Counted from the first letter of the stretch, positions 27,010 through 28,066 are shown. The stretch: DNA of 64,000 nt from Candidatus Hadarchaeota archaeon (GCA_964384105.1 CAYLJV010000001.1:128001-192000), one strand, 5' to 3'. Notes: generated by a model not told the origin, from the sequence alone. Translations and numbers: made by a program.

Positions 27010-27744
27010 ATGATTGGCGAAAGTTTAGTCCTTCTTTGGCTCTCGGTAGCAACTTTGCTGGCGTCGGTAGTGGGAACCTTTACTGGTTTTGGAGTTTCCA
27101 CGATTCTGATTCCTGTATTTCTTCTATTTTTTCCAGTATCTGAAACTTTACTTCTCGTGGGTGTGATACATTGGTTTGGAAATGTCTGGAAATTACTATT
27201 GTTTAGAAAAGGGATAGAATATAGATTAATTTTGCTTTTCGGAGTACCCGGTGTGATATTGAGCTATACAGGTGCTCGATTGTCCTTGGAAATACCTCAG
27301 GCAATTCTGGCAAGAGCCATTGGTCTATTGATAATTTCATACGTTCTGTTCATTTACTTCAAGCCCGATTACGAGCTACCAGAGAATAGGAAGAATGCAC
27401 TTATTGGCGGAACATTGTACGGATTCTCCTCTGGCATTTCTGGTATAGGAGGTGAATTGCGGTCTATGTTTCTAACTTCCTTTCACTTGCCAAAAGCCGT
27501 GTATCTTGCCACTACTGGAGCTATTTCTCTCACCATCGATTCGACTCGTATAGTTACCTACATAGCAGGTGGAACAAGGGTTGGAAGCAACATTATCATT
27601 ACTTTGATGGGCTTGGTTTTGCTTTCTTTAATTGGTGCATACGTAGGGAAGCGTTTTGTAGAAAAAGTTCGAAAACGAAGGTTCAGGATGGTGGTCGTAC
27701 TTTCTCTGCTTCTGGTTTCTCTGAAGCTTTTGCTATTTCCTTGA
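27010..27744 (+). CDS. TauE/SafE (TSUP) family exporter
   Basis: GTFTGFG and GFSSGISGIGG repeats; multiple TM helices. Confidence 0.8.
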   Translation: MIGESLVLLWLSVATLLASVVGTFTGFGVSTILIPVFLLFFPVSETLLLVGVIHWFGNVWKLLLFRKGIEYRLILLFGVPGVILSYTGARLSLEIPQAILARAIGLLIISYVLFIYFKPDYELPENRKNALIGGTLYGFSSGISGIGGELRSMFLTSFHLPKAVYLATTGAISLTIDSTRIVTYIAGGTRVGSNIIITLMGLVLLSLIGAYVGKRFVEKVRKRRFRMVVVLSLLLVSLKLLLFP

Positions 27745-27791
27745 ACTATGTGTTTTCCTTTAGTGCTCTGATTATTGCCTAAGTTGATATA

Positions 27792-27933
27792 TGCCGGGGG
27801 CGGGACTCGAACCCGCGACCTCGCGATTTCCCACATCATCTCGTGGATCAGCACTCACAACCGAGATTAAGAGGCTATGAGTCGCGCGCTACTAACCACC
27901 TGAGCTATCGGGTCCAGTTAAGGATACCCCGGC
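27792..27933 (-). tRNA. Elongator tRNA-Met(CAT) with two introns: 27907-27925 (position 8/9) and 27828-27875 (position 37/38)
   Basis: Removing both inserts at BHB-predicted cut sites gives a normal cloverleaf GCCGGGG-TA-GCTC...CGCGA-CTCATAA-TCGCG...GGTTCGAGTCC...CCCCGGC-A. Confidence 0.9.
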
Positions 27934-28066
27934 TCAGCCCCGGCACATTTGTTTACTATTGGCGTCTCTCTTAAAAGATGCTTTTGTTGTACGATCTTAA
28001 AGTTTCTAAAAGAATGATGATAGTAGTTTTGAATCATTAGATTTGCTTTTTTGGATAAGGATTTTC

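Follow-up and report, generated by a model that had tools for sequence, protein, structure and literature searches.

How could a tRNA be spliced at position 8/9, directly behind the 5' acceptor strand, when the splicing motif itself engages that strand? The question is raised by a locus in a 64,000-nt window, the whole stretch of DNA analyzed here, in which positions are counted from the first letter and the tRNA gene lies on the minus strand. A pre-tRNA-Met(CAU) is encoded at 27944-27792, minus strand, with an 11-nt leader, a 19-nt intron (intron 1) and a 48-nt canonical intron (intron 2). An earlier note had described intron 1 as bounded by a BHB that is completed by the leader, and the start of the leader as a second copy of the 5' acceptor strand. 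Upon re-reading of the minus strand, its letters and coordinates were all correct.

The gene and the BHB at position 8/9

The gene and its upstream region comprise the following features.

27970-27976, minus strand: TATA-like box TTTTAAG, a putative promoter element that precedes the duplicate GCCGGGG by 25 nt and G1 by 36 nt
27944-27934, minus strand: leader GCCGGGGCTGA (GCCGGGG plus CUGA), read from the sequence
27938-27944, minus strand: duplicate GCCGGGG, with which the leader begins; it matches G1-G7 at 7/7 positions and lies 11 nt upstream of them
27934-27937, minus strand: leader CUGA, providing 4/6 pairs of the BHB outer helix, with U12-G15 as partner
27926-27933, minus strand: exon 1, G1-U8, of which G1 and C2 belong to the outer helix and C3-G6 to the central one; G7 and U8 are part of the 5' bulge
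27907-27925, minus strand: intron 1, 19 nt, ATCCTTAACTGGACCCGAT, position 8/9, in a strict 3-4-3 BHB; lineage-specific
27906, minus strand: A9, the first nucleotide after intron 1
27876-27906, minus strand: exon 2, A9-A37, with the D-arm, the 5' strand of the anticodon stem and the anticodon CAU, according to the ARAGORN cloverleaf of the spliced sequence
27828-27875, minus strand: intron 2, 48 nt, canonical position 37/38, present in 19/19 orthologues
27792-27827, minus strand: exon 3, A38-A73, with the 3' strand of the anticodon stem, the variable loop, the T-arm, the 3' acceptor strand CCCCGGC and the discriminator A, according to the ARAGORN cloverleaf

No CCA is encoded at the 3' end, where the discriminator A73 is position 27792. 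All exons are collinear within 153 nt, and the gene is thus neither split nor permuted. Removal of both introns in silico, with cuts after the second bulge nucleotide, gave a sequence that ARAGORN folds as a 75-nt cloverleaf of tRNA-Met(cat). Without splicing, the gene received no ARAGORN call and scored 26.3 bits with the Rfam tRNA model, for which the cut-off is 29; because both tools overlook it, the genome would be annotated without an elongator tRNA-Met. For introns near the tRNA ends, tRNAscan-SE 2.0 is described as scanning 60 nt of flanking sequence (PMC8450103, PMC4090602).

The minimum-energy structure of 27944-27892 calculated with RNAfold is identical to the proposed motif, in agreement with the claim of a strict BHB. 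It consists of a 6-bp outer helix CUGAGC/GCUCAG, to which the leader contributes four pairs and G1 and C2 the other two, a 4-bp central helix CGGG/CCCG formed by C3-G6 with intron nucleotides 14-17, two 3-nt bulges (G7-U8-A and A-U-A9), a 3-bp inner helix and a 6-nt loop, and all 13 of its 13 pairs are Watson-Crick pairs. On paper, the predicted BHB is certainly completed by the leader. The real 5' acceptor strand is consumed by this motif, as had been proposed, with C3-G6 engaged in the central helix.

The sequence by itself allows three placements of the 19 nt (7/8, 8/9 or 9/10), and it is the BHB geometry with its cut sites alone that selects 8/9. The removal of 19 nt at this position restores U8-A9, as the earlier note had stated; a cloverleaf results, and it matches the uninterrupted sequence of 19/19 orthologues. 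When the 19 nt were shuffled 200,000 times with their composition preserved, 430 of the shuffled sequences formed at least a minimal BHB at these cut sites, and 129 had an inner helix of at least 3 bp. Four Watson-Crick leader pairs with U12-G15 are offered by one in 256 four-base words. The combined pattern of BHB and duplicate exceeds chance.

Host genome, relatives and recent gain of the intron

The host genome (G000) is a Hadarchaeota MAG of 1.62 Mb in 12 contigs, with 40% G+C and a completeness of 90.2%. Its EndA is 65-66% identical to the EndA proteins of Candidatus Hadarchaeota and Hadarchaeia MAGs, followed by Methanobacterium as the next best match. Three tRNAs with a CAU anticodon are encoded in this genome. 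One is the initiator tRNA-Met (contig C8, 35433-35567), with A1-U72 and a GGG/CCC anticodon stem. Another is tRNA-Ile2 (contig C1, 351151-351247), which is identical to tRNA-Ile(GAU) at 66/76 positions, has the same acceptor stem and bears a 21-nt strict-BHB intron of its own at 30/31. The third is the present gene, with G1-C72 and an anticodon stem CGCGA/UCGCG. Since the other two are the initiator and Ile2, the present gene is, judging by sequence, the sole elongator tRNA-Met of the 90.2%-complete assembly, and it should be essential.

In a genome scan for strict BHBs, each of 109,058 candidates was spliced and then submitted to ARAGORN, which resulted in 23 junction-spanning calls. Besides canonical introns, the scan recovered introns near the anticodon stem of tRNA-Ile2, tRNA-Leu(UAG) and tRNA-Leu(UAA), and among its calls in the host genome only the 8/9 intron sits in the 5' part of a tRNA. 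Several tRNAs, for example tRNA-Asn(GUU), were found neither by ARAGORN nor by the strict-BHB scan.

EndA is encoded by a single gene of 178 aa (PF01974, 119 bits; TIGR00324, 126 bits). Of the solved structures, the M. jannaschii homotetramer 1A79 matches it best over the full length (residues 12-173, 122 bits). A search with a beta-subunit model matched only the same 178-aa gene in this 90%-complete genome. From gene count, length and best match, we infer that the host EndA is of the alpha4 type. Enzymes of this type are reported to need a strict 3-4-3 hBHBh' motif (PMC3239211). RtcB is also encoded (594 bits), and an archaeal RNase P RNA is present (219.8 bits).

A DNA search of 40 relatives showed that the orthologue is widespread, and 19 loci were fetched, 4 from the same genus, 2 from the same family and 13 from the same order. 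The locus is syntenic, with rpiA (ribose-5-phosphate isomerase) upstream on the same strand in most relatives, and the exons of the present gene are intact and 81-94% identical to those of the orthologues. The canonical intron is kept in 19/19 fetched orthologues. By contrast, G7-U8 to A9-G10 is unbroken (GCCGGGGTAGC...) in 19/19, and both the 19-nt intron and the upstream GCCGGGG duplicate were found in 0/19. As the feature occurs in one lineage, the comparison gives no covariation for the leader, which the earlier note had suggested checking together with its conservation. A copy of at least 6/7 of a tRNA's own nucleotides 1-7 within 40 nt upstream was likewise found in 0/46 other ARAGORN-called tRNAs of the host genome and in 0/19 orthologues. 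Two further same-genus genomes (65-85% complete) gave T-arm matches only. A pattern with a 10-40-nt insert between exon 1 and the D-arm matched 2/66 Hadarchaeota genomes, the host and one other (G061); the site in the latter is not a tRNA and was rejected, which leaves one true match among the 66.

Intron and duplicate are thus confined to one species-level lineage and, because the relatives are without both, represent a gain on the branch to the present species. Very probably, intron 1 is a real and functional-looking strict-BHB intron that was gained recently, at 8/9, by an essential tRNA gene of a Hadarchaeon. What makes this locus informative is that a fresh intron gain appears to be caught in an essential single-copy gene, absent from the 19 fetched orthologues, in a genome with a sole EndA that is strict-motif-like, and that a copy of the first exon is included in the extra DNA.

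The allele consisting of leader and intron 1 was also present in Logan DNA contigs from four runs, which belong to three studies; the contigs match without gaps and differ at 0-1 positions. A single RNA run was among the runs listed, with a small share (0.07) of the sampled words. The DNA contigs are:

X1 and X2, study P1: leader and intron; may be the source sample
X5, study P2: 27791-27984, 1 difference, no gaps
X6, study P3: 27872-27988, 0 differences

Beyond the matched spans, the contigs of X5 and X6 diverge from the window, either because of different flanks or as short graph contigs. A separate metagenome scan for GCCGGGGT followed by 12-40 nt and AGCTCAGGTGGTNAG gave 42 loci, none of which was a further 8/9 intron, in a collection that may leave out near-identical records. 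Some of the loci were not tRNAs, and the others were ordinary tRNAs, bacterial for the most part, that have GCCGGGGT upstream by chance.

The duplicate acceptor strand and the order of processing

Whether the duplicate is part of the precursor depends on the start of transcription. The usual archaeal spacing between TATA box and start predicts, from TTTTAAG, a start near 27946-27944, so that the duplicate would be included; this agrees with the earlier claim that the box places the leader in the transcript. TTTTAAG or TTTTAAA is also found upstream of the orthologue in four same-genus relatives, at 25-40 nt from G1.

The proposed pairing of the duplicate with the 3' acceptor strand was seen in the minimum-energy fold of the whole precursor and in the predicted ensemble. 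In the former (-70.3 kcal/mol, z = -3.3), the duplicate is paired to C66-C72 and the BHB is retained; in the latter, the probability of this pairing is 0.98 at 37 C and that of the true acceptor stem is ~6e-9. We calculated the probability of the BHB in constrained ensembles for varied 5' ends of the transcript at 37, 60 and 75 C:

Start at 27946 or 27944, with duplicate: 0.69, 0.34 and 0.11
Start at 27937, with CUGA only: 0.013, 0.0008 and 0.0002
Start at G1 (27933), 5'-matured: 1.7e-8, 3.6e-7 and 5.7e-7

The BHB occupancy is thus ~50-fold higher with the duplicate than with CUGA alone, and a precursor trimmed first by RNase P is a dead end in this model. The earlier proposal that splicing is enforced before RNase P trimming is supported by the predicted BHB probability of ~1e-8 in the 5'-matured precursor. 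The interpretation in the earlier note is partly supported overall; it is weakened by the prediction that the duplicate also traps the RNA after splicing. With intron 1 removed, the probability of the duplicate conformer is 0.98 at 37 C and 0.72 at 75 C, compared with 2e-6 and 0.03 for the true acceptor stem, since the CUGAGC/GCUCAG pairing is retained in a hairpin of 6 bp and a 7-nt loop. According to the model, the duplicate would hinder the last step if the equilibrium is not shifted by tertiary folding or by the binding of RNase P.

Four consecutive pairs between leader and D-arm, with G-U allowed, were found in 3/19 intron-less orthologues, and three pairs in 3 more, so that CUGA need not have been selected for the intron. 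After cleavage by EndA, only 2 bp would hold the 8-nt 5' exon if there were no leader, compared with 6 bp if CUGA is present and 13 bp if the duplicate is present as well. A tether of 13 bp should, in the model, be relevant to ligation.

We slightly favor the reading that this single-copy elongator tRNA-Met, which combines an old guide intron with a recent 8/9 intron and 11 leader bases, follows a splice-then-trim pathway. Transcription would begin about 0-2 nt upstream of the duplicate, and the first ~50 nt would fold into the strict 3-4-3 BHB, with CUGA and G1C2 paired to G10-G15 and the central helix formed via C3-G6. The 3' acceptor strand, made ~100 nt later, would bind the free duplicate rather than displace the BHB, and the resulting helix would conceal G1 from RNase P and tether the tiny 5' exon by 13 bp. 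The single alpha4-like EndA would then cleave both bulges, and RtcB would ligate U8 to A9. Finally, the real 5' strand would displace the duplicate, the D-arm would form and RNase P would take off the 11-13-nt leader. Because the mature acceptor stem and the BHB are mutually exclusive, splicing of intron 1 would have to precede 5' trimming.

The folding model suggests that the duplicate is needed as a placeholder or tether and that it forces splicing to precede 5' trimming; we hold this tentatively, leaning a little against it. If the duplicate is needed, it would be a simple escape from the conflict between mature fold and splicing fold, and the locus a natural case in which splicing obligatorily comes before 5' trimming. 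It is doubtful that the full set of roles applies, in which the acceptor-strand copy in the leader would serve the RNA as a built-in chaperone that occupies the 3' strand, hides G1, clamps the exon and reverses the trim-then-splice order, and would have come with the intron in one 30-nt event. If true, the locus would offer a snapshot of a strict-BHB lineage gaining a viable intron at an otherwise forbidden site.

The intron could also be real and spliced while the duplicate is a footprint of the insertion without a required role; the 5' hairpin would then fold during transcription and be cut by EndA ahead of the synthesis of the 3' strand, and RNase P would remove a longer leader. This is the main rival reading, which we regard as possible without favoring it. 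Compared with the orthologues, the host gene has gained either 19 nucleotides together with a longer leader or 30 nt inserted at once between G7 and U8. Deletion of 27937-27908 (30 nt) in one piece likewise brings back the ancestral gene, in which the first GCCGGGG then serves as the acceptor strand. Furthermore, 13 of the 30 extra bases copy the adjacent tRNA, CTGAGC being the inverted nucleotides 10-15 and fused at GC to GCCGGGGTA, the direct nucleotides 1-9. A published model ties a direct repeat of a 5' tRNA fragment to intron gain via mobile-element integration (PMC3293823), and the predicted trapping of the spliced RNA by the duplicate points the same way. The spacing of 25 nt between TTTTAAG and the first GCCGGGG equals that to G1 in the closest relative (L002), but the spread of TATA-to-G1 spacings in the genus (25-40 nt) makes this argument weak. 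A TATA-like hexamer 15-45 nt upstream was found in only 15/46 tRNAs, at distances of 16-41 nt, which is too noisy to assign a start site or the ancestral GCCGGGG, and a MAFFT alignment of the same-genus upstream regions does not decide which GCCGGGG holds the ancestral position. Against a footprint, the BHB would reach at most 1.3% at equilibrium without the duplicate, and a harmful remnant in an essential single-copy gene should be purged. In addition, no integrase or element remnant was found adjoining the gene, nor was there a donor copy of the 19-nt or 30-nt piece: blastn-short against the whole genome returned the locus only (other matches were at most 15 nt, E >0.5), and an exact 29-nt scan of viral contigs gave 0 matches.

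Other explanations concern the gene itself. It might be a pseudogene disabled by the insertion, with a working elongator gene in the ~10% of the genome that is unassembled, and the tRNAs missing from the 90.2%-complete assembly, such as tRNA-Asn(GUU), are in line with this. Such decay is improbable given that the insert is a perfect strict BHB, as reached by 0.2% of shuffles, that all exons are intact with 81-94% identity to orthologues at the syntenic locus downstream of rpiA, that each relative contributes a single such gene to the fetched loci, and that the allele persists in samples of three studies. An identical mature sequence would be obtained if the first GCCGGGG were the start of the tRNA and 30 nt were excised in one step as an intron at 7/8; this register has no 3-4-3 motif, as worked out by hand from the sequence, and the strict-BHB genome scan gave only the 19-nt register at the locus, which makes it highly improbable. 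An assembly or binning artefact, for which a metagenome-assembled draft in 12 contigs gives some occasion, has next to no probability in view of the independent Logan contigs from four runs and three studies in which this leader and intron recur, ungapped and with 0-1 differences.

Non-canonical archaeal tRNA introns have been described at "seemingly random" positions, with 3/4 as the extreme case (reviews and methods including PMC4090602, PMC4033280, PMC8450103, PMC3218864, PMC4390854 and PMC11408192). Position 8/9 is absent among the positions named in the literature covered (20/21, 22/23, 25/26, 29/30, 30/31, 45/46, 53/54, 56/57, 59/60 and 3/4). The literature searched, reviews, methods papers and a 2026 Asgard census among it, contained no description of an 8/9 intron, of a leader copy of the acceptor strand or of Hadarchaeota tRNA introns. 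In principle, a role of the leader in BHBs near the 5' end is not new, as shown by the known 3/4 intron. The introns of Thermoproteales, Thaumarchaeota and Asgard archaea resemble intron 1 as short BHB-bounded inserts outside 37/38 that are presumably removed by EndA and RtcB; further similarities are a canonical intron in the same gene, a recent lineage-specific gain and the contribution of the leader near the 5' end. In the sources covered, however, they occur mainly in lineages with (alpha-beta)2 or epsilon2 enzymes and relaxed motifs, in contrast to the single alpha4-like EndA found here (PMC3239211, PMC5829648). The route by which introns arrive "remains open" according to a 2026 census of Asgard tRNA genes (bioRxiv 10.64898/2026.10.13.758758).

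The closest parallel for the extra DNA is tRNA-Thr(GGU) of Caldiarchaeum subterraneum, in which a repeat of a 5' tRNA fragment and a new intron arose together, as attributed to mobile-element integration (Sugahara et al. 2012, PMC3293823). That repeat is 27 nt long and 1.8 kb upstream, with a recombinase-bearing element in between, whereas the present one comprises 7 nt, lies 4 nt upstream and is without an element; the paper proposes no processing role for the repeat. In split and permuted tRNA genes (Nanoarchaeum, Caldivirga, Thermofilum and C. merolae), a leader or trailer absent from the mature tRNA similarly helps to build the BHB cut by EndA (PMC4090602, PMC4033280). According to these sources, EndA cuts such leaders at the BHB; the leader in the present gene only extends the outer helix, its removal by RNase P is proposed and the transcript is one contiguous molecule. 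In M. kandleri tRNA-Glu, also from a euryarchaeal-type lineage, a second intron in the D-loop lies in the 5' third beside the canonical one (Su, Tripp and Randau 2013, PMC3695527). There, 5' and 3' trimming are reported to occur before intron removal, and the acceptor stem is mature with the D-loop intron still present, to which the order proposed here would be an exception.

Intron 2 as a candidate guide for C34

The canonical intron contains GGUUGUGAGUG-CUGA, 8 nt and GAUGAUG, an arrangement that is common across the order. Its elements are as follows.

27862-27852, minus strand: guide, with C34 opposite the fifth nucleotide upstream of CUGA
27851-27848, minus strand: box D'-like CUGA
27840-27834, minus strand: box C'-like GAUGAUG

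The duplex of guide and target has 10 bp and spans A31 to intron nucleotide 3 (A31-A37 and the first three intron bases). In an alignment of 18/20 sequences, 17 of them distinct and with L003 and L019 left out by the pattern, 99.4% of the cells of this helix are paired, and 3/10 pairs, the three able to vary, have compensatory changes; this level was reached by 0/500 shuffles. The anticodon stem and the BHB central helix of intron 2 are 98.7% paired. Within intron 2, box conservation is confined to CUGA and GAUGAU(G), which are separated by 8 nt, and neither a terminal C/D pair nor a match to an Rfam C/D family was found.

Intron 2 looks like a cis box C/D-type guide for Cm34 (2'-O-methylation of C34) of elongator tRNA-Met, as far as can be judged from the sequence. 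Cm34 of archaeal elongator tRNA-Met is described as box C/D-guided (PMC6601510, PMC11408192). The candidate resembles the guide in the euryarchaeal pre-tRNA-Trp intron and the trans guide for Cm34 in that the guide lies by CUGA with C34 at the fifth position. It differs in that only a D'/C'-like pair is evident in its 48 nt, and in that tRNA-Met carries the guide in its own intron.

Leader pairing and surroundings of the tRNA-Met gene

The four bases preceding G1 can pair with U12-G15 of the D-arm in three orthologous elongator tRNA-Met loci of relatives, all of them without the 8/9 intron (L005, L009 and L020; leaders TTGA, CTGG and TTGG), and ATGA precedes G1 in the tRNA-Met genes of three more relatives. 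Complementarity between leader and D-arm seems common in this tRNA-Met lineage, and it may represent a pre-adaptation of the 8/9 intron site.

A protein-coding gene lies between tRNA-Met and the triosephosphate isomerase gene:

27010-27744, plus strand, TauE/SafE-family membrane protein gene

In several relatives (L012, L014, L015 and L017), the isomerase gene follows tRNA-Met without an intervening TauE/SafE-family gene. In contigs from sequencing runs X5 and X6, which belong to two further studies, identity to the window ends at 27791, the 3' end of tRNA-Met, and at 27984-27988, just upstream of its promoter, and the contig sequence past these edges is unlike the window. The edges could reflect different flanks around a near-identical promoter-plus-gene block, or merely short assembly-graph contigs.

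The canonical tRNA-Met intron as a candidate guide

The canonical intron (27828-27875, minus strand) looks like a cis-acting box C/D-type guide. It contains GGUUGUGAGUG followed by CUGA, with A31-A37 and three intron bases as the pairing partner and C34 at the fifth position of the pairing; GAUGAUG lies 8 nt downstream. This arrangement is kept in all 19 orthologues (L002-L020), comparison of which identified compensatory changes at 3 of the 10 pairs of the guide duplex.

Other non-canonical introns and the endA locus

Further non-canonical introns interrupt three tRNA genes of the source genome, which ARAGORN misnamed Ser-aga, Pro-agg and His-gtg, respectively:

G000:C1:351151-351247, tRNA-Ile2(CAU), 21-nt intron at 30/31, strict BHB
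G000:C8:12441-12560, tRNA-Leu(UAG), 34-nt intron just 5' of the anticodon
G000:C4:41380-41515, tRNA-Leu(UAA), 29-nt intron plus another intron, immediately 5' of the anticodon

The source genome, with one alpha4-like EndA, therefore carries multiple non-canonical introns, each with a strict motif. The EndA gene lies in this locus:

L021 (G000:C1:104375-107632), containing endA (178 aa) and, directly after it, a 366-aa gene

The latter gene, from its sequence, presumably encodes tryptophanyl-tRNA synthetase. Both genes lie just downstream of the tRNA genes for Trp (65-nt intron), Arg(UCG) (20-nt intron) and Arg(CCG).
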